Part shown: piece after piece, positions 2,706-43,401 of the stretch | Numbering within the stretch: position 1 is the first letter of the stretch | How the letters are laid out: the number at the start of each line of letters is the position of its first letter | Sequence record: NC_055712.1 | DNA: 64,000 bases | From: Escherichia phage phT4A | Reading direction: 5' to 3' (one strand) | Made by a program: the position numbers and the translations under genes | The notes under the pieces: generated by a model | Databases searched by the model: none | The model's input: the letters and a program-made list of their open reading frames with translations, nothing else | What the model was told of the DNA's origin: nothing

Positions 2706-3299
2706 TCAAGGTTTACAAGTACGATACCACTTATCTAATTTTTCTGCAAGCATTTCGTTGATAATTTTTGCAATTTCGTACCGTCCGTGAGTAGTACCCA
2801 GTTCCAGGTAAATCACATCAAGTGCGCACACAATCGCATCAATACTTTCTTCAACGATATTACCGCCGCGTTGAGGCTGAATGAGACATTCGCTGATCTC
2901 GCCAACTTCCGCTGATAGGTGATGAACCACATCACTCTTCGTGCGTTTCTTCACTTTATGAGCGATTTCAAAAAACTTATCAAGTACGATCGCCGTTTCT
3001 TCTCGCGTTGCGGTATTCTCGGATGTTGTTTCCATCGCATTTCGCAAAACAGTTTCCAAAGATGTAAAATAGTTTTCAAACACGTTGAAAGGGATCACAT
3101 GAGGAACACCATTCAAAAACACCCCTTCTTTACAAACATAATGGATTTTGCGCGGAATAGACAAACCGCCGCTGCATTCCAAATGTCGTTTAATGCTTGC
3201 TACAAAATCGAAATCTTTCCCGTATCCAGCCAACATACTGTGATAAGTGAGTTGACCAATTTCAGGAACATAGAGATCATTTTCTTTATACAGATTCAT
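2706..3299 (-). CDS. hypothetical protein with C-terminal MazG-like NTP pyrophosphohydrolase-type helical domain
   Basis: C-terminal SAEVGEISE...EESIDAIVCALDV...EKLDKW pattern resembles MazG/HisE EExxE helices. Confidence 0.45.
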   Translation of the reverse strand: MNLYKENDLYVPEIGQLTYHSMLAGYGKDFDFVASIKRHLECSGGLSIPRKIHYVCKEGVFLNGVPHVIPFNVFENYFTSLETVLRNAMETTSENTATREETAIVLDKFFEIAHKVKKRTKSDVVHHLSAEVGEISECLIQPQRGGNIVEESIDAIVCALDVIYLELGTTHGRYEIAKIINEMLAEKLDKWYRTCKP

Positions 3300-4810: not shown

Positions 4811-4883
4811 AATAATTTCCTCCCTTGTTTCGATGGGGTAACTATACCAAAGCTACCCCAGAATGTTTTAACAAAAAGTGCTA

Positions 4884-5147
4884 TTAGTAGGTATCCAGTT
4901 TATACATTTTGCACCAGTTCATGAATTCTTCGAAAGTCTGAGTATTAACACGTTTTTCCTTCTTCACTTTCTTAGTGATTACAGGACGGTTAGTAAAACG
5001 TTTTTGCATTTTCACAGTGATTGCTACTTTATCGCCCAGGTCTTCAACCTTTTCAACCAGCGCCCACTGAGAACCAATTTCAGCGCCGAAAGTCAAACCA
5101 ACAATCTCACCTGCTTTAACGTGTGCTGCATATTTTACTTTAACCAT
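4884..5147 (-). CDS. hypothetical protein
   Basis: Start moved to MVKVKYAAH (ATG 5147); longer track ORF runs into the upstream hairpin/promoter. Confidence 0.5.
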   Translation of the reverse strand: MVKVKYAAHVKAGEIVGLTFGAEIGSQWALVEKVEDLGDKVAITVKMQKRFTNRPVITKKVKKEKRVNTQTFEEFMNWCKMYKLDTY

Positions 5148-5538: not shown

Positions 5539-5759
5539 TTACCCCTGTTTACTGATTGACGGTGCAATGATTTAGGCACAACCGGATTTCGGTATGGTTT
5601 GACTTTATGGATCGTGGGTTCTTCCCCAACCAAATTAGGAAATTGGCTGTTCCATTCCATCGAAAATGGATAGGGTGATGACTTTAACTCTTCGATCATA
5701 CAGTTTACTAAACGGTCGCCGATTACACCCAAAGCCGCCCCAATAATCGCTATACGCAT
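5535..5759 (-). CDS. hypothetical protein
   Basis: 74 aa ORF, ATGA-type overlap with neighbour. Confidence 0.4.
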   Translation of the reverse strand: MRIAIIGAALGVIGDRLVNCMIEELKSSPYPFSMEWNSQFPNLVGEEPTIHKVKPYRNPVVPKSLHRQSVNRGK

Positions 5760-6257: not shown

Positions 6258-6925
6258 CGTTTCTTTCCTATGCTGTTTTCGTCTGTCTCTTCTAAGGATG
6301 GAGGTTCTTCCAGCCCCAGGGCATAACGTTTAGCATAGATTAGCATCAATGCATCTTTAGCGCAATCATGAATCGAATCATGCTGAATGAATCCATCTAA
6401 CATGCCTTTACGTAGTGGACACGTGGTCACTCCGCGAGTCAGTAAACGGTTTTCAATAGCTGTACGCACATCACGGCTATTCCAGAACACGGTCGGCATA
6501 TCTTCAAACGTGTCAAGTTTCCCTGTCATAGTTCGTACAACATCGGTTAGCATAGAACGATCGAATTCAGGGCCGCGCGTATAATCGTATGACTGCCAAC
6601 GACTCACACCGTCAGCCGCTAAATCAGCAAAGAATTGTCGATGACCTTCGTACAAATCCATGTCGATATCGGAAGGGAACAAAACCCTTTGCGCTTCTTT
6701 AGATTGCTGTTTCCACCATTCGATCGTTTTTTCATCTTTGATGCGTTCTGGTTGTTTCCGGATGTCAAATTTGTACTTTCTTCCTTTAGCAATCAGTTCC
6801 TGAAAGGTAGGCGGATCATAAGGATCATCAACAAACGGAACATAGCTAAGTTCAGCTAGTTTTCCTTTTGGAAACGGGCCAATACTTTCATAATCAAATA
6901 CGAAATCTACGGGTAAATGACTCAT
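6254..6925 (-). CDS. dexA: exonuclease A (DexA)
   Basis: 223 aa; collinear similarity to recalled T4 DexA (TIEWWKQQS, TTCPLRKGMLDGFIQHDSIHDCAKD). Confidence 0.85.
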   Translation of the reverse strand: MSHLPVDFVFDYESIGPFPKGKLAELSYVPFVDDPYDPPTFQELIAKGRKYKFDIRKQPERIKDEKTIEWWKQQSKEAQRVLFPSDIDMDLYEGHRQFFADLAADGVSRWQSYDYTRGPEFDRSMLTDVVRTMTGKLDTFEDMPTVFWNSRDVRTAIENRLLTRGVTTCPLRKGMLDGFIQHDSIHDCAKDALMLIYAKRYALGLEEPPSLEETDENSIGKKR

Positions 6926-7539: not shown

Positions 7540-8868
7540 TTAGACATAATCAACAGTGAATCGTGCGCGGGTAGTTCCTACATAAAGCAACTGCTTACAC
7601 AATTCATAATCGGCGTATGCGTATGCATCGCGCGTATACATGTATGAATGATCATACGTGCTTCCCTGACCTTTGTGATACGTACAAACCGGAAGCGCCT
7701 TAACCGTCTGGAACTTGTTTTTGATTTGCCAGAACGAATACCAGGGGGCTTTGTATCCGGTTTCCTGTTTCATCTTTTTATACTGAAACGCGACGTAGTT
7801 CAAATAATCGCCTAAACGTTCCTGCATAACCGGATCCGCGATAACCTGAATATCCGCTTTCGTATCCTCGAACATCGATTCTGTTTTCATCAAGAAATAA
7901 TCGATTTGTACCGGATCGCATCGGTCAGCTTTGATAGTATCAGAACGCGGTATGATTTCAAGGATTTTAATTTGCTCGTTGTTGTTATAGATAACTTCAA
8001 CAAACGAAACCCCATTCACACGGCCTTCTGTCACTAACGGTTCTTGCATCACAACCACTTCACCAACAATGAACGGCTGATCAGTTTTGTACAAGTGTTT
8101 ACGGATCACTGCGTTTAACTTGTCTACGTTTGCGTTAGTGTAAGCAAACATACGGTTATTGTTCAGGTCATCCGGAGTCTTAACACGGCTAAAATAACGT
8201 CTCAGGAAGTCACCAGCGTTTTCGTGCTTCATTACCCCTAGTTCACCATTCATGAGGGGCATTAACGGCTTACCGTCGCGTATAGCGCGTGATACCTGGA
8301 TGATTGGGTTTCCTTCTGCCTGACGCATAATCTTATCCATGCGAATGACATCAAAAATTTCCTCATCAAAGAACGGTGAAAGCTCGGTGATCCCTTCGGT
8401 ATTAACAGGACGGATCTGATCCTTATCACCCAATCCCAGGATCACCGCACAACTCGGAATAGTACGCTTGATGATACGGAATAGTTCTTTGTCAACCATC
8501 GATACTTCTTCAACCACAAACACACGACATTCAGACAGATCAGCGGCTTTTTTGCCTTTTTGCTGTTCAAATACTCGTAACTCTTCGTTGGTTACGGGGC
8601 TGATTTTCAGTGCTGAGTGAATGGTCGTTGCATCCATACCCACCGCCTCAGAGAGAACGTTTTTAGCCTGGTGCGTCGGTGCTGTCAACCAGATCCCACT
8701 AATACCCAGTTTTTTCAATGTTTCAAACACAAATTTTACCAGAGTAGTTTTACCAACACCCGGCCCACCTGTGATAGTAGTATGGATTTTGTTTCTGATA
8801 TTTTTAATCACTCGATCATGTGCATTTTTCTGGTCTTCGCTCAGATCGTCAAAAGTTAATTCGCTCAT
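7540..8868 (-). CDS. dda: Dda DNA helicase (SF1)
   Basis: 442 aa; Walker A GGPGVGKTT; collinear with recalled T4 Dda. Confidence 0.9.
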   Translation of the reverse strand: MSELTFDDLSEDQKNAHDRVIKNIRNKIHTTITGGPGVGKTTLVKFVFETLKKLGISGIWLTAPTHQAKNVLSEAVGMDATTIHSALKISPVTNEELRVFEQQKGKKAADLSECRVFVVEEVSMVDKELFRIIKRTIPSCAVILGLGDKDQIRPVNTEGITELSPFFDEEIFDVIRMDKIMRQAEGNPIIQVSRAIRDGKPLMPLMNGELGVMKHENAGDFLRRYFSRVKTPDDLNNNRMFAYTNANVDKLNAVIRKHLYKTDQPFIVGEVVVMQEPLVTEGRVNGVSFVEVIYNNNEQIKILEIIPRSDTIKADRCDPVQIDYFLMKTESMFEDTKADIQVIADPVMQERLGDYLNYVAFQYKKMKQETGYKAPWYSFWQIKNKFQTVKALPVCTYHKGQGSTYDHSYMYTRDAYAYADYELCKQLLYVGTTRARFTVDYV

Positions 8869-9155
8869 ACTTTAATCAATACCCCTTGAATACTTGCGTG
8901 TTCAATAAACCAACGCATATCTTTCTTTTTCTTTTCGGTTACGGTTTCAACTTCTTCCTTTCGAAAGAATCGGCTAAGACCACTTTGTTTAACTGGATTC
9001 ATCTTATCATGATATTCTTTGATAATCGAATTTTTATACTCGTTAGCATCGTCCGGAGATAGAAACAACAAAGGTGTTAACTCTCCTTCCTTAATGAAGG
9101 GAATTTTAAACCCGTCTTTATCCTTACTAACGACGATATAATATTTTGTAATCAT
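8865..9155 (-). CDS. hypothetical protein
   Basis: 96 aa ORF. Confidence 0.5.
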   Translation of the reverse strand: MITKYYIVVSKDKDGFKIPFIKEGELTPLLFLSPDDANEYKNSIIKEYHDKMNPVKQSGLSRFFRKEEVETVTEKKKKDMRWFIEHASIQGVLIKV

Positions 9156-9391
9156 TCTCGCCCCTCATAACAAACGTAGAATATTCCAACAAACCAAAAC
9201 ACTGATAGTATAATCAGTAAAAGTTTTCTTTCAACGCCATTTACGTGAAACACACACCAACCGAAAAGATATGTGATCATCGCGCAAACACCATAAGAAA
9301 GAACCCCAACAGCTACTAGCATCAAAAAGTGCCATTGATCGATACTATAAATATAATAAAGGAGATTATACATGATATCGACCGTAAGCAC
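9152..9391 (-). CDS. hypothetical membrane protein
   Basis: 79 aa, two hydrophobic segments; extended -10 (TGTATAAT) upstream. Confidence 0.4.
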   Translation of the reverse strand: MLTVDIMYNLLYYIYSIDQWHFLMLVAVGVLSYGVCAMITYLFGWCVFHVNGVERKLLLIILSVFWFVGIFYVCYEGRE

Positions 9392-9555: not shown

Positions 9556-10215
9556 ATGGACTACCGTAAAATTTACACCAATCTTATAGAAAAAGCAAGA
9601 GATAGAACACTAAATTGTTACACAGAAAAGCATCATATCATCCCCCGATGTATGGGAGGTTGTGACGATCATGATAATTTAGTAGAACTTACCGCAGAAG
9701 AACATTATGTAGCCCATCAACTTCTTGTCAAGATGTATCCACACAATAATAAGTTGATATATGCTGCTAATATGATGTGCGTCAACGCAACACAGAGAAA
9801 TAATAAAGCATATGGATGGATCCGCAGAAAGTGGATATCTCAGATATCAAAAGACAGGACAGGGACAAAGGCAACAGAAGAACAACGCAAAAAGATGTCA
9901 GAATCCCATAGGGGAGACAAAAACTCTATGTATGGGTTACGCGGTGATAATCATCCTGCTTATGGTCAAAAACCCTGGAGAAATCAAATAACAATGAAAG
10001 GAAAGCATGAATGGAGGTATGCTGGGATTTTCTATGACTGGTATATTAACGATATTAAAGCTGGAATCTATAAAAGACAAGGACACAAGAGAATGCTACA
10101 AGAATTGCAAATTGCAACAATCTCCCGTGTTCCTAGAACATCAATCGAGTTATTCAAAAAGGGGTGGAACCCTTACGAAGATACCGATTGGGTTGAGTGG
10201 GCTAATAATCAATAG
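9556..10215 (+). CDS. freestanding HNH homing endonuclease (Mob-like), opposite to flanking genes
   Basis: HHIIPRCMGGCDDHDNLVELTAEEHYVAHQ HNH motif; paralog of 31484-32209. Confidence 0.8.
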   Translation: MDYRKIYTNLIEKARDRTLNCYTEKHHIIPRCMGGCDDHDNLVELTAEEHYVAHQLLVKMYPHNNKLIYAANMMCVNATQRNNKAYGWIRRKWISQISKDRTGTKATEEQRKKMSESHRGDKNSMYGLRGDNHPAYGQKPWRNQITMKGKHEWRYAGIFYDWYINDIKAGIYKRQGHKRMLQELQIATISRVPRTSIELFKKGWNPYEDTDWVEWANNQ

Positions 10216-10745
10216 CTGTTGGCCCAACGACGAAGATTTTCGGCTTGTTTAAGAGCGTACATCTTATAAATTGTTTCTGCATCCATACCCAATGCAATAA
10301 ACTTACATAGTACAAAGTGGAATTGGTCGATCATTTCAAACAGAACTTCTAAACGATCCTCTTCACTCAGATCCGCAAATTTAGTATTGCGCAATTCCTG
10401 GTGATTTGCTTTCCACGGTTTCCAAACACCGGATGCAGGTTTAACACCGCGAGACATTCCACCCAGAGCGGTATACAATTCGCGGGTTTCGTCGGCGATC
10501 GCGTCGTCTTGCAGTTTCAGCCAATCAAGGATTTCTCCGCAAGTTTCCAGATTATCAGGACGCGGAACCCAATGCAGGGTATCAGACAGGCTTTGTTGCG
10601 CATGGTTTTGTAAATCCAGCATGGATTGTAAAGGATCGCCATTACGGGCCAGAACCTTTTGATATTCGGAATCTACAAATTCCAGATCTTCCGGGTTAAC
10701 CAGGTGCGCACATGAATTAAATACAGGAGTTTTATCAGTAGTCAT
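10209..10745 (-). CDS. 56: dCTP pyrophosphatase (gp56, MazG-like)
   Basis: 178 aa; collinear with recalled T4 gp56 (CAHL, DPLQ.MLD.Q, FELVDIFHFVL-like). Confidence 0.85.
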   Translation of the reverse strand: MTTDKTPVFNSCAHLVNPEDLEFVDSEYQKVLARNGDPLQSMLDLQNHAQQSLSDTLHWVPRPDNLETCGEILDWLKLQDDAIADETRELYTALGGMSRGVKPASGVWKPWKANHQELRNTKFADLSEEDRLEVLFEMIDQFHFVLCKFIALGMDAETIYKMYALKQAENLRRWANSY

Positions 10746-12806: not shown

Positions 12807-13583
12807 TTACTCTATTGTGAAAGTGAATAAATCAGATTTGGTTTCAGGTTCAAACTCCATACAAACAACCTCGCATAGTGGTTTAACCCCTTTCCAATCC
12901 TCCAGGTAATACCCAGTATCTATACCGCATCCAGGATTCATAACGAGGCCAGTTTCATCAAGAAACTTTTTGCATTTACTTGATGTGGTGCTGTCATCTT
13001 GTCGGAAACAGTGTGTTTTCGAATACCGGAAATTTGCAGACATTTGAGGGATTATGAAAGTTCCCTGACGTGCGATCTGTGATGCACGTTCGATTACTTT
13101 ATACTCAAATTCTGCCCCTGTATACTTACCCTTAAAATCAGAGGTTTTGATTTTACCAAAAGGCGGGTTACTGATCGCCATATCAAACACCTGATTAAAT
13201 TCAGTTGTTAAGGCGTCTCCATGCACCCAGGAGGCTTCTGGTACGATACGCTTACCTAACTCATAGTATGTGTGATTTAACTCAACACAGACGATTTCAC
13301 GCGGCGTATTGTACATCATGTAATGAACCATAGCGAAAGATAACCCACCGATACCAGCACACAGGTCAATAACACTTCCACCTGTGCAAGCATCGATTGT
13401 GAAATCGCGAGCAAGTCCAATAGGGGTAAAGAACGCCCCTAATTCAGAATTGTTTGTAAACGCGCCTTCATGAAAGTTTTCAATAATGAACAACTTCTCT
13501 TCGTAAGTTAGCGCTTTGTCAGAGTGAACCAGATCCATTATCTGATTGTGTTTCTTGGTTTCCGCTTTCGTTAACTTTGCCAT
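12807..13583 (-). CDS. putative N6-adenine-type (gamma-class-like) methyltransferase
   Basis: Motif order FFTP (X) -> VIDLCAGIGG (I) -> NPPFG (IV); start placed at MAKLTK (ATG 13583). Confidence 0.65.
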   Translation of the reverse strand: MAKLTKAETKKHNQIMDLVHSDKALTYEEKLFIIENFHEGAFTNNSELGAFFTPIGLARDFTIDACTGGSVIDLCAGIGGLSFAMVHYMMYNTPREIVCVELNHTYYELGKRIVPEASWVHGDALTTEFNQVFDMAISNPPFGKIKTSDFKGKYTGAEFEYKVIERASQIARQGTFIIPQMSANFRYSKTHCFRQDDSTTSSKCKKFLDETGLVMNPGCGIDTGYYLEDWKGVKPLCEVVCMEFEPETKSDLFTFTIE

Positions 13584-20949: not shown

Positions 20950-20995
20950 ACACCCAATATAACAAAGCCCCTGCACGAATGCAAGGGCTTTTTGA
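20950..20995 (-). repeat. promoter-stem-loop cassette, family S (TTGCAT variant)
   Basis: aaaagcccTTGCATtcgtgcaggggctttgtTATATT on minus strand. Confidence 0.55.
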
Positions 20996-24988: not shown

Positions 24989-25648
24989 TTAGTTTAGTTT
25001 GATTAACGTTTGTTTCATTAAGTTTCGATATTTTATGATATCTTTTTCAGTAAGGTCAAATATTTTTCTGTATGCCTTTAACTTAATGCTAAAGTCAGAC
25101 CAAATAATATCATCAGCTACTTGATCGTGTTTATTTATGATACCTAAAAATGAGTCAAAAATCAAAAACGATTCGTAAGATATCACATTTGACAGGACAA
25201 GTTTGCTTATGTAGGACGTTGATGATTTTTCGCTGTACTTGAACACCAGAGACACGGGGATCTCTTTCATTTTGGCGAATTCGTACACGTTTTTAACGTC
25301 ATCCACAAACACGTTATCTAGTCTTTGTAACTTTCCTATGTACTGCCTGTAAAAGACAATACTATCTTCATCAACATCGCCTACCCAGAAATCCGGATTG
25401 GCTACGAAGTTGGAGAGGAATATAAAATAGATTTCTTTGAATGTAAAGCGTTGAGCTAATTTTACAAAGAAATATCTATCCTTTCGCTTGTTAAAGGCGT
25501 TTTCACTAACTTTGATCTGCCAGTTGTATTGAAGGACATCAAAACGCCCCTGGAAATGAGTTTTCATCGCCAGATATAACTTGTATACAGACAAAGGCAC
25601 AAGCCGTGAATTCGCCTCGCTATCAGCAAACGGAGCTTTGAATCTCAC
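24989..25648 (-). CDS. 59: helicase loader (gp59)
   Basis: 219 aa; collinear with recalled T4 gp59 (SVYKLYL, YNW, SIKLKAYRKI). Confidence 0.85.
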   Translation of the reverse strand: MRFKAPFADSEANSRLVPLSVYKLYLAMKTHFQGRFDVLQYNWQIKVSENAFNKRKDRYFFVKLAQRFTFKEIYFIFLSNFVANPDFWVGDVDEDSIVFYRQYIGKLQRLDNVFVDDVKNVYEFAKMKEIPVSLVFKYSEKSSTSYISKLVLSNVISYESFLIFDSFLGIINKHDQVADDIIWSDFSIKLKAYRKIFDLTEKDIIKYRNLMKQTLIKLN

Positions 25649-26166: not shown

Positions 26167-27102
26167 TCAAAAATCACTCAGTTTTTCGAACATACGGGAA
26201 AGTTTGTTATCCATGAAGTAACGTTCCATTTTGGCTTTACTTCCGGATTTTGGAGTATTATACGCTTCAATAATCGAATTTTCAATATCTTTTGGTATAA
26301 ATTCGAAATCGCGTAGTTCCTCATTTTCTTTGTAACGTGCGGCCCATTCAGGGGTCATCAATGTTGTCGGATCGTCTGCCTCCAGCCATGCCTCTAACTC
26401 AGAGGATTTTACCGCTGGGGCGCGTTCACCTTCAACCTTCGTCACAATATAATCATTTCTAATTTTAATGCAAGCGATACTATCTTTTTTATCGCCTTTG
26501 ATATTTTTGTATCGCAGATCGTTACGTGGCGAACCGTACTTAGGCGTTACCCATTTTTTCTGGGGAGGCGACCATTGACGAACACCGTTATATTTCTGTA
26601 GTTGTGTAAAGTCGCTATCAGCAGAAACCACTAATACTCGTCTACCTTCACCAACAGCTTTTTTCGTAACAACAGCAATTATATCATCAGCTTCCGCGAA
26701 TTCAACCTTTAATCCAAGATAAGGCATATTCTGACGGATTTCTTCGAACACTGGGTTCAGGAAGTTGTTCAGACGATCCCAATCCCATTCTGATTCTTCA
26801 TGTTCGATCTGACGACGTTTTTTGTAGTACCAGGCTTTTTGCCTACGCCAGTAATTTCTGTCATCGAAGGCAATCACGATTTCTGGATACTCACCTTTAA
26901 ATTTTACAACGTTAAACCGTAAAGTGTCAAGCACCAGATGACGAATCATTTCGATCGTGATGGATGCTTGTTCCTTTGGTTTGAAGTTGTTCATCAGTGT
27001 AGCGATGGAAATGTTAGAGATATCGATGACCATAGTATCATCGGGTTCCCCTTCATCTTGCATCAGCTTGTTCAAGTTAAACATGCTTGCAAAACTGCTC
27101 AT
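26167..27102 (-). CDS. rnh: RNase H / 5'-3' flap exonuclease (Rnh, FEN-1 family)
   Basis: 311 aa; collinear with recalled T4 RNase H (WDW, EADD.IAV, SADSDFTQL, KGDKKD). Confidence 0.9.
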   Translation of the reverse strand: MSSFASMFNLNKLMQDEGEPDDTMVIDISNISIATLMNNFKPKEQASITIEMIRHLVLDTLRFNVVKFKGEYPEIVIAFDDRNYWRRQKAWYYKKRRQIEHEESEWDWDRLNNFLNPVFEEIRQNMPYLGLKVEFAEADDIIAVVTKKAVGEGRRVLVVSADSDFTQLQKYNGVRQWSPPQKKWVTPKYGSPRNDLRYKNIKGDKKDSIACIKIRNDYIVTKVEGERAPAVKSSELEAWLEADDPTTLMTPEWAARYKENEELRDFEFIPKDIENSIIEAYNTPKSGSKAKMERYFMDNKLSRMFEKLSDF

Positions 27103-27406
27103 ACATACCTCAATTTTTCAAAGAACGGGGTTATTGTAGTAACTTACGAAATGAAGTCAATACAAAAGACCATAAAAATTTTGATCAATAATACTTGATC
27201 TGATCAAATTTATGATCTATAATTTATTAATTAATAATTATTTTACTACAATGATCATTGTAGGTCAAGTACTAAAATCAATAAATTTTATATAATTTAG
27301 ATCTGATCTATAGATCATTAGATCTACTTTAACCTTAAATAATATAGAATGAAATTTGATTTTGTCTACAGTTATTATATAATATTCTTAACTTCAAAGA
27401 GGAAAT
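27103..27406. promoter_or_regulatory. AT-rich divergent intergenic region with a GATC-palindrome cluster (candidate origin/divergent promoters)
   Basis: 9 GATC in 27183-27324; perfect palindromes CAATGATCATTG (27249-27260) and GATCTATAGATC (27305-27316). Confidence 0.5.
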
Positions 27407-27934
27407 ATGAATACTATGACTAAAGAAACAACCAATATCTACGCAGACAATGAAAAATTATACCCTATCCTCTGTGCATGGAAAAAGCAAATCGCCGAAA
27501 CAGGTGATCGCAAAATGCCTAATGAGTTAGGTGCTGCTATTATGGATATTGCAAACGGGCTATCACGTCGTTACAACTTCAACCGTTATTCCGAAGATTG
27601 GAAAATGGATATGATTGATGACGGAATTTCCGCTGCAATCTCAGGACTACATAACTTCGATGAAACTCGTTATACCAACGTTTACGGTTACATTAACAAA
27701 GCATGTTGGCAAGCATTCGTAACACGTATTCTGTACGAGAAAAAAGAGAACGCGAAGAAATATAAATTCTTCCTTGAGCACGTTTACGACTGCGAAGATT
27801 CGGATATGGTTAGTATTGCAGACGAAGGTTTCATTCAAGATCTACATGACAAACTATCTCAGTACGAGGCTTCCGCCACCAAAACCAAAGACAAGGAAGC
27901 GGAAGTATTCCCAACATTGGAAGATTTTCTATGA
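27407..27934 (+). CDS. 55: late sigma factor (gp55)
   Basis: 175 aa; GLHNFDET, ACWQAFVTRI collinear with recalled T4 gp55. Confidence 0.85.
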   Translation: MNTMTKETTNIYADNEKLYPILCAWKKQIAETGDRKMPNELGAAIMDIANGLSRRYNFNRYSEDWKMDMIDDGISAAISGLHNFDETRYTNVYGYINKACWQAFVTRILYEKKENAKKYKFFLEHVYDCEDSDMVSIADEGFIQDLHDKLSQYEASATKTKDKEAEVFPTLEDFL

Positions 27935-43149: not shown

Positions 43150-43401
43150 ATGGCTAAACAAATTCAAGCAATCATCGCCGATACCGTCGCAAAATCCAAA
43201 AAACTTTTCGACAAAGGCGACATCCTCGAAGCACCGACCCGCATCGATGTAATGACTTCAATGATCATTGATGCTCACCAGGGAAAACTGAATTCCCGTG
43301 CTTCGGAAGTAATGGAATACATCGTACAGTTCGAGGATGTATGCAAATACGCCAAAGCTGTTGATCCGGCTGTTCGCGAAATCTACCGCAAACAGTTCTA
43401 A
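43150..43401 (+). CDS. hypothetical protein (position corresponds to rIII next to gene 31 in T4)
   Basis: 83 aa; synteny only. Confidence 0.4.
   Translation: MAKQIQAIIADTVAKSKKLFDKGDILEAPTRIDVMTSMIIDAHQGKLNSRASEVMEYIVQFEDVCKYAKAVDPAVREIYRKQF

Follow-up and report, generated by a model that had tools for sequence, protein, structure and literature searches.

A GATC-dense spacer between rnh and gene 55 of a Slopekvirus is one of three AT-rich promoter islands and a candidate replication origin

We analyzed a 64-kb stretch of DNA (the window) from a Slopekvirus (family Straboviridae), in the KP15/KP27/PMBT1 group of T4-like Klebsiella phages. The window contains a cluster of GATC sites in the non-coding spacer between rnh and gene 55. 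A 3-kb query around this cluster matched 107 phage records at 99% identity or above. The genes and features of the locus are as follows; those given without a strand have none assigned.

26167–27102, minus strand: coding sequence of rnh (RNase H / FEN-like), the left flank; open reading frame of 311 aa, annotated as RNase H in PMBT1, KP27, and others
27103–27406: non-coding spacer between rnh and gp55 (island R1); 304 bp, GC 22%, 9 GATC
27133–27160, minus strand: rnh-proximal predicted sigma-70-type promoter, TTGACT-16-TACAAT; consensus scan and KP27 annotation
27181–27188: palindrome TTGATCAA, with GATC no. 1; read directly from the sequence
27195–27223, plus strand: rightward inner predicted promoter cassette, TTGATC-N13-GATC-TATAAT (17-bp spacer); KP27 record and consensus scan
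27218–27245: pure A/T run of 28 bp, a candidate DNA unwinding element; between the −10 elements of the facing promoters
27240–27268, minus strand: leftward inner predicted promoter, TTGACC-17-TAAAAT, which faces the rightward cassette; KP27 record and consensus scan
27246–27263: 18-bp perfect palindrome CTACAATGATCATTGTAG, centred on GATC no. 5; occupies the whole spacer of the leftward promoter
27280–27299: second pure A/T run, 20 bp; from the genome scan for A/T runs
27299–27325: right GATC array, AGATCT-GATCTATAGATC-ATT-AGATCT, with GATC nos. 6–9; direct reading
27335–27348: block TTAAATAATATAGA, conserved between genera; alignment with Pseudotevenvirus-type spacers
27356–27383, plus strand: gp55-proximal predicted sigma-70-type promoter, TTGATT-16-TATAAT; KP27 record, consensus scan, and alignment
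27407–27934, plus strand: coding sequence of gp55 (late sigma factor, gene 55), the right flank; open reading frame and KP27-type annotation

In KP27, all of the genes from position 1 to rnh are on the minus strand, and all of the genes from gene 55 to beyond 50 kb are on the plus strand, so the rnh/gp55 spacer is a major point of divergent transcription. For genome-wide scans, we used mtp7 (OX335407.1, 177.7 kb), which is a complete and near-identical phage.

GATC begins at nine positions in the spacer (27183, 27197, 27202, 27214, 27253, 27300, 27305, 27313, and 27321). The original prediction described nine sites within 142 bp of AT-rich non-coding DNA, at a density far above chance, and direct counting confirms this: the nine sites span 27183–27324, which is 142 bp. 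Base composition predicts 0.55 sites in the spacer, and dinucleotide-preserving shuffles predict 1.08. The most that any of 20,000 shuffles gave was six, and the Poisson probability of nine is 8e-9. In the 166-bp core, 9 of the 13 G residues sit in GATC. The window as a whole contains 407 GATC, versus 279 ± 15 expected, and the local excess is far above this window-wide excess, in DNA that is poor in G and C. Other intergenic DNA, which had been proposed as the comparison, does not share the density: nowhere else in the 64-kb window are there six or more GATC per 142 bp, and the rnh/gp55 spacer has the highest GATC density in the 177.7-kb genome of mtp7.

The nine sites are laid out as 4 + 1 + 4, with flanks of the form TGATC(A/T) or AGATC(A/T), and their spacings (5, 8, 8, 12, and 14 bp) are irregular. 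Three perfect palindromes had been reported among them. CAATGATCATTG (27249–27260) and GATCTATAGATC (27305–27316) are where they were placed, but TTGATCAA lies one base further left, at 27181–27188. The central palindrome CAATGATCATTG extends to the 18-bp perfect palindrome CTACAATGATCATTGTAG, which is unique in the window and in the genome at up to two mismatches. Its arms (CTACAAT) share ACTACA with an inner inverted repeat from phage RB43 that is described below.

The spacer has four predicted sigma-70-type promoters: the outer two point outward and the inner two face each other. (The promoters were called by a consensus scan, in agreement with the KP27 record, and are matches to the hexamers only.) The −10 element of the rnh-proximal promoter overlaps ATTGTAGTAA, which is an inverted copy of the half-site of the 18-bp palindrome; a 10-nt inverted repeat pairs 27133–27142 with 27243–27252. 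The rightward cassette contains GATC nos. 2–4, which are located in the −35 hexamer, in the spacer, and at −16 to −13, respectively. The 28-bp A/T run begins at the −10 element of this promoter. Judging from the positions of the hexamers, the start sites of the two facing promoters would be about 3 bp apart. In the right array, GATCTGATC is a direct repeat of 27197–27205. The consensus scan found no good promoter hexamers over the right array or over TTGATCAA at 27181. This layout suggests that the spacer is a compound control island, with outer, outward promoters for rnh and gp55 and a module of ~190 bp between them. The module consists of a left array of four GATC, the facing promoters that share an A/T run, the palindrome, and four further GATC arrayed on the right.

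Several other kinds of element can be set aside. A structured RNA is rejected: Rfam covariance models gave no match at E ≤ 1 for the KP27 spacer locus or for two loci of the RB43 module (see below), and the predicted single-strand fold is only slightly more stable than those of shuffles (z = −3.3) and is made of local palindromes. We also reject a PeSL cassette, as no terminator-like hairpin was found in the island, and a late promoter, as TATAAATA is absent from the islands. PeSL (promoter early stem-loop) elements are a promoter plus a GC-rich hairpin and are found in T4-type phages (PMC2839356, PMC4122927).

Across eight Slopekvirus genomes, we found 58 variable sites in 3,525 bp around the cluster. 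The spacer has just one variable site, versus 5.4 expected from the flanks (P = 0.03), so constraint on it is no weaker than on the flanking genes. The sole variant, G27300A, is found in PMBT1 and in one metagenomic genome. It destroys one GATC of the right array; not all of the GATC sites are essential. The variants in the two similar islands described next (R2 and R3) hit no GATC, but they are too few for significance. Purifying selection on the GATC sites specifically is not demonstrable from these data: the Slopekvirus genomes are too alike, one GATC is polymorphic, and R2 and R3 contain too few variants.

In the mtp7 genome, only three regions have under 28% GC per 300 bp, and every one of them is GATC-dense, with 10, 7, and 10 GATC per 300 bp in R1, R2, and R3, respectively. 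The three islands are as follows.

R1: the rnh/gp55 spacer
R2: between the terminator of gene 24 and uvsY, at the uvsY promoter (KP27 annotation)
R3: between gene 3 (minus strand) and an open reading frame of unassigned function (plus strand), near genes 2, 4, 53, and 5 (KP27 annotation)

The mtp7 genome has seven pure A/T runs of at least 20 nt, and these islands contain all of them. A promoter cassette of the form TTGAnn-N13-GATC-TATAAT is common to the three islands and absent from the rest of the genome. For instance, all five genomic copies of the 11-mer TGATCTATAAT are in islands, and four of the five have TTGAnn exactly 17 bp upstream. The 13 spacer bases before the GATC vary, while the GATC at −16 to −13 is invariant in all five cassettes. 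The cassettes in R2 are directed away from uvsY and are antisense to the late gene 24. Counting both strands, each island has 10–11 promoter-like sites, versus 3–4 in shuffles. The ordinary promoters that are dispersed through the genome are of another type: they are linked to hairpins, like PeSLs, and none of the six that we checked contains GATC. Dense GATC is thus confined to three special loci in this phage and is not typical of its intergenic DNA.

R2 and R3 do not have the two-cluster GATC geometry that is seen in R1. The reading frame that R3 would drive (KP27_206, or ORF200w in RB43) has no match in Pfam, and its only family is a PHROG without an assigned function. As a side observation, metagenomic assemblies of these phages break at the islands, which are repeats.

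The same three locations are occupied by a different element in the sister genus Pseudotevenvirus. RB43, RB16, GAP161, CfP1, Pantoea phage Phynn, and relatives from soil metagenomes keep the synteny of rnh and gene 55 and have spacers of similar length. Pseudotevenvirus-type rnh/55 spacers contain only 2–3 GATC and instead hold a dyad-symmetric module of ~190 bp. This module has an AT-rich core, TATTTTATATATAGAGAAAA, which is absent from Slopekvirus; an inner inverted repeat of 7–11 nt around the core; and outer arms in which CGAAG is repeated to the left and CTTCG to the right. Each of the 15 copies that we examined has the inner repeat, with four types of arm (AACTACA, ATGTACTG, ATGTCC, and TGGGTAT). 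Because the repeat is kept in every copy despite four different arm sequences, it must be maintained by compensatory change.

Scanning IMG/VR for the pattern gave exactly three copies of the module per complete genome, apart from CfP1, which has two matches. All copies share one orientation. In RB43, the modules are in the rnh/55, gp3/ORF200w, and gene 24–uvsY spacers, which are the same three slots as in Slopekvirus. The module in the uvsY slot lies between back-to-back, outward consensus promoters that both have a spacer GATC, as do several of the other promoters that flank modules in this clade.

When the rnh/55 spacers of the two genera are aligned, the shared anchors are the two outer promoters and TTAAATAATATAGA. 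The rnh-proximal promoter is kept as TTGACT-16-TATAAT in RB43, GAP161, and Phynn, and TTAAATAATATAGA is kept in all three of the aligned Pseudotevenvirus-type spacers, although its last positions differ in Phynn. Between these anchors, the GATC module of Slopekvirus (~27170–27335) stands in place of the RB43 module, and the arrays of CGAAG and CTTCG pentamers occupy the positions of the GATC arrays. When IMG/VR and metagenomes were scanned for intermediate relatives, every genome recovered was either a near-identical Slopekvirus or a relative that carries the RB43-type module. That two genera fill three equivalent slots with genus-specific dyad modules, AT-rich at the centre, argues for a specialised function at the level of DNA, rather than for ordinary promoters.

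To our knowledge, T4 is the only T4-like phage whose replication origins have been experimentally defined, so we compared the islands to these. The T4 record locates oriG within gene 34, oriE within gene 5 (3.4 kb from gene 3), and oriF at the 5' end of uvsY. The position of R2 is exactly syntenic with oriF, while R1 and R3 match the neighbourhoods of oriG and oriE only to within 2–3.5 kb. The original prediction had placed a T4 origin in the equivalent neighbourhood next to rnh. However, oriG is not in a spacer adjoining rnh: it is within a gene, at a distance of 2.2 kb from where rnh starts.

In T4, oriE, oriF, and oriG are among the more active origins and are near switches in the transcribed strand (Kreuzer and Brister, PMC3016281). 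Both oriF and oriG consist of a promoter plus an A+T-rich unwinding element, and the origin transcript forms an R-loop, which is probably cut into a primer by the viral RNase H (PMC3016281). All three islands show this promoter-plus-unwinding-element build; in R1, the A+T-rich element (27218–27245) is directly downstream of a predicted promoter. R1 and R3 are at divergent strand switches, and R2 is at the uvsY promoter.

In contrast, an origin of the T4 middle-promoter type is rejected. We did not find MotA or AsiA in the genome using tblastn, and there is no Mot box in any of the three islands. Also, T4 origins have 0–1 GATC per 400 bp, so the GATC array is not a trait of T4 origins. If R1 is an origin, then the absence of MotA would imply that it is built on sigma-70-type promoters.

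GC skew, which had been proposed as a check, adds little. The genome has four large strand blocks, with divergent switches only at R1 and R3. Cumulative GC skew has minima at both of these but shows no inflection at R2. Because the skew tracks gene orientation, it is not independent evidence of an origin.

The phage encodes an enzyme that could modify these sites. A full-length orthologue of T4 Dam, which is a GATC-specific adenine methylase, is at 112914–113765 in mtp7, outside of the window (PF02086 at E = 6e-37; PDB 1YFJ at E = 2e-85). Dam and Dcm genes are listed in all members of the group (PMC5219037), and the in vivo role of T4 Dam is still called unclear (PMC12707154). We found no homologue of SeqA in the phage, so any protein that reads the GATC sites is hypothetical.

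R1 matches the E. coli origin in GATC density: oriC has at most 9 GATC per 142 bp (and 11 in 232 bp), and R1 has 9 in 142 bp. But oriC-like anatomy is rejected. None of the islands contains a DnaA box (TTWTNCACA, with up to one mismatch) or an oriC 13-mer (GATCTnTTnTTTT) with up to one mismatch; two matches to the 13-mers appear only at two mismatches. We also found no iterons in the islands. As far as we know, T4-type replication works without DnaA.

We tentatively propose that R1 is one of three T4-like origins, each with a promoter plus an unwinding element, and that these origins are decorated with Dam sites. The case is circumstantial; of the explanations considered we rate this one highest, as a serious possibility rather than a probable one. 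The suggestion that the cluster marks an origin thus survives in part. On the positive side, R1 is one of three AT-rich, GATC-dense islands; it is at a divergent switch and has near-consensus predicted promoters that abut an A/T run; and the islands are in or near the neighbourhoods of oriG, oriE, and oriF, in a phage with a Dam orthologue, with GATC density like that of oriC. On the negative side, T4 origins do not have a GATC cluster, DnaA boxes and 13-mers are absent, and the skew is not independent evidence. Several of the GATCs belong to promoter hexamers or to the spacers between them, so a role in transcription alone is roughly as defensible.

If the islands are origins, we infer that they would work as follows. 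Host RNA polymerase would start at a strong island promoter, and the transcript would invade the neighbouring, easily melted A/T stretch as an R-loop. The RNase H that is encoded next door would trim the R-loop RNA into a leading-strand primer, and the outer promoters, by transcribing divergently, would contribute negative supercoiling. Both the phage's T4-type Dam and the host's Dam would methylate the GATC sites, which may tie the activity of the promoter or the origin to its methylation state. Specifically, the infecting DNA, if fully methylated, would fire, while new hemimethylated DNA would be shut off, perhaps by the host's SeqA. This shut-off would stand in for the shut-off of MotA promoters in T4, given that the phage lacks MotA.

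A bolder version is that the three origins fire only from fully Dam-methylated DNA; that hemimethylation stops them, via SeqA or the loss of promoter activity; that this forms a methylation-clocked switch from origin-dependent to recombination-dependent replication; and that the three slots hold interchangeable, genus-specific modules, with GATC arrays for Slopekvirus and, for Pseudotevenvirus, CGAAG/CTTCG arrays plus an inverted repeat that co-evolves. We think that this full scheme is unlikely to be correct as stated.

The main rival to the origin proposal is that R1 is purely a cluster of promoters, which heads two divergent early units of ~30 kb each and has no origin function, and that the cassette was copied to three sites. 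This explanation is also plausible, although we lean towards doubting it. Here the GATCs would be by-products or parts of promoter elements: TTGATC would be a −35 element, and a GATC just before TATAAT would give a C at −13, which would favour sigma-S and help against H-NS on AT-rich DNA. (A C at −13 does favour the sigma-S holoenzyme; PMC3141248.) The spacer's four consensus-like promoters fit this explanation, as does the placement of three of the nine GATCs in the rightward cassette and of another in the spacer of the leftward promoter. The invariant GATC at −16 to −13 of all five cassettes and the spacer GATCs of the sister genus's flanking promoters also fit. Furthermore, rnh, gp55, and uvsY are pre-replicative genes, each requiring a promoter of its own, and strong early promoters would be needed at all three island sites anyway. 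But promoters would not explain the right array of four GATC or TTGATCAA at 27181, where there is no good promoter. Nor would they explain why there are exactly three islands, when the other early promoters are of another type and lack GATC; why the cassettes in R2 point away from uvsY and are antisense to a late gene; or why the sister genus has three untranscribed dyad modules between back-to-back promoters.

Another explanation is that R1 serves as an operator or binding array to which a phage-encoded and probably dimeric protein would bind. This protein would co-evolve with its sites and switch the facing promoters. It might recognize the 18-bp palindrome, or repeats such as GATCTGATC and GATCTATAGATC, or both. 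Binding by a dimeric protein was part of the original prediction, and the perfect 18-bp palindrome suits it, since it exactly fills a promoter spacer and has its half-site repeated at the −10 element of the rnh promoter; but we did not find a candidate protein. In the sister module, the inner repeat varies by compensatory substitutions among four arm types, as would be expected if a protein and its site co-evolved, and CGAAG/CTTCG arrays flank the module where Slopekvirus has GATC arrays. On the other hand, the palindrome is in R1 only and is absent from R2 and R3, and the GATC spacings are irregular. We consider an operator improbable as the explanation for the islands, though it is compatible with both the origin and the promoter readings and does not exclude either. 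Much less likely still is a packaging site like the pac site of phage P1, in which two clusters of Dam sites flank the cleavage region and the start of packaging depends on methylation. The arrangement in R1 (4 GATC, ~80 bp, and 4 GATC over 145 bp, mostly as TGATC(A/T)) does resemble P1 pac, which has 4 + 3 TGATCA/G hexamers in ~160 bp. But there are three islands instead of one, two of them lack the two-cluster geometry, and they are not adjacent to the terminase genes, from which R1 is distant. As far as we know, headful packaging by T4-type terminases does not use a pac site, and the deposited Slopekvirus records begin at arbitrary positions, as permuted genomes would. Finally, the cluster might be an artefact of chance or composition in a GATC-rich genome, as GATC is 1.75-fold over-represented genome-wide. 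We reject this explanation and give it almost no weight: none of the shuffles reached nine, the cluster is in the most G+C-poor DNA, and R2 and R3 are GATC-dense as well.

In the searchable literature, we found no description of the GATC cluster, of the three islands, or of the three-copy module of Pseudotevenvirus, and we found no transcriptome, replication profile, or usable data on termini for Slopekvirus. Our analysis turns an odd spacer into a precise and testable set of three islands per genome at conserved positions. This is relevant to when and where replication starts in the many T4-like phages that are now used against Klebsiella. If the islands are origins, then they offer a handle on how origins evolve by the replacement of modules, as well as a possible methylation-based timing switch in a phage without T4's MotA system. 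If that methylation-clocked switch were real, it would give a T4-type phage Dam its first in vivo role. And if the islands are promoters only, then they form a distinct class of GATC-bearing promoters, which may be sensitive to Dam.

The islands are not a new category of element: they combine two known kinds, which are promoter-driven phage origins and control regions that are rich in Dam sites. Among the latter, E. coli oriC has the same GATC density as R1, a similarly AT-rich setting, and outward transcription on both flanks, as is predicted for R1. It is under the control of Dam and SeqA, which includes its flanking, GATC-bearing gidA and mioC promoters. Unlike oriC, R1 lacks DnaA boxes and the GATCTnTTnTTTT 13-mers, and binding by SeqA is hypothetical. 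In phage P1, clusters of Dam sites at pac, and the GATC heptamers of the plasmid origin oriR, act as methylation-dependent switches. P1 packaging requires Dam methylation at pac (PMC12707154). The islands differ from the P1 elements in that there are three of them, away from the packaging genes, in a phage with a headful T4-type terminase, and in having no initiator iterons.

Dam-sensitive promoters include dnaA p2, pIN of IS10, and P1 cre. Like the predicted promoters of R1, these sigma-70 promoters have GATC in the −35 hexamer, in the spacer, or beside the −10 element. Unlike them, R1 has up to three GATC per promoter and has arrays outside of the promoters. PeSLs resemble the islands in being repeated, promoter-bearing cassettes at which assemblies or recombination can break, but they have a GC-rich hairpin, are scattered in hyperplastic regions, and are present in dozens of copies.

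The Pseudotevenvirus module is in the same three spacers as the islands and has shared anchors, an AT-rich centre, and an ACTACA inverted repeat; it differs in having inverted CGAAG/CTTCG arrays in place of the GATC arrays and in its core (TATTTTATATATAGAGAAAA). The oriF and oriG of T4 depend on MotA-dependent middle promoters and lack a GATC cluster, unlike the islands. Yet they have a strong promoter that abuts an easily melted A+T stretch, at or near a strand switch, much as R1 has predicted promoters beside its A/T run at such a switch, and R1 has RNase H encoded next door.

In the sister genus Pseudotevenvirus, the three spacers that are occupied here by the AT-rich, GATC-dense promoter islands R1 (between rnh and gp55), R2 (upstream of uvsY), and R3 (between gp3 and an ORF) hold a different module of ~190 bp, with three copies per genome. 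We aligned the three copies from RB43 with 12 further copies (alignment A3). In each module, an inner inverted repeat and outer inverted CGAAG/CTTCG arrays surround an AT-rich core. The inner repeat has four arm types and is maintained via compensatory changes. We found no description of this three-copy module in the searchable literature.

Module copies in RB43, by locus
L038:5625-5849, module copy
L041:1992-2216, module copy
L044:1263-1487, module copy

Metagenomic contigs of these phages start or stop at R1, R2, and R3, within an island or module. Evidently, the repeats in the islands and modules break the assemblies.

Contigs that break within islands or modules
IMGVR_UViG_3300045988_041714 (loci L026, L036)
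IMGVR_UViG_3300045988_015308 (loci L029, L043)
ERZ1026872.38 (locus L058)
ERZ1035001.86 (locus L060)

GATC is also abundant genome-wide. In the near-identical complete genome mtp7 (L007-L010), it is the commonest 4-bp palindrome (1,151 sites, or 6.5 per kb, versus ~3.7 expected), and CTAG is scarce (90 sites). The window contains 407 GATC sites, compared to 279 ± 15 expected. Pseudotevenvirus loci (RB43 and RB16) are equally enriched, at 6.6-7.4 per kb; the sampled T4 loci have 1.5 per kb. As for the 18-bp palindrome within R1, its sole other near match in the window is CTTCAATGATCATTGATG (43256-43273), which lies outside the islands and has 3 mismatches; the similarity is probably due to chance. 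A putative second adenine methylase, annotated as "DNA methyltransferase" in the relative KP27 (KP27_035), has only weak matches in Pfam (MTS, 2e-5; N6_Mtase, 3e-4):
Window 12807-13583, minus strand, ORF

Using tblastn against the mtp7 genome, we detected no homologs of T4 MotA or AsiA, and the sole match to repEA (E = 1e-4) was in an antisense frame within gene 5. Only 14 copies of the T4 late-promoter octamer TATAAATA are present in mtp7. Most of the "middle promoters" annotated in KP27 resemble the promoter-early stem-loop (PeSL) cassettes of T4-type phages: a GC-rich hairpin, with TTGCA in or beside the loop, is followed by TATATT or TATAGT. These look like composite terminator-promoter cassettes.

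KP27 "middle promoters" (window coordinates are approximate because of at least one indel between KP27 and the window upstream of rnh)
Before the window start, KP27 3098-3126
Window ~4826-4854, KP27 8868-8896
Window ~5102-5136, KP27 9144-9178
Window ~5708-5736, KP27 9750-9778
Window ~6459-6488, KP27 10501-10530
Window ~20956-20984, KP27 24998-25026

Directly downstream of the promoters in R3, which presumably drive it, is a conserved ORF that belongs to phrog_7322 (a family with no assigned function) and has no match in Pfam:
KP27 100806-101594 (L011:6807-7595), plus strand, ORF flanked by genes 3 and 2 but oriented oppositely to them
L065:2405-3013, RB43 counterpart (ORF200w)

R2 (mtp7 128252-128440) contains five GATCTA(A/T)(A/T)(A/T)T motifs, and one of these overlaps, on the other strand, the -10 element of the uvsY promoter. 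All five are directed away from uvsY, antisense to the late gene 24. This orientation is reminiscent of T4, where oriG and oriE have annotated antisense primer RNAs.
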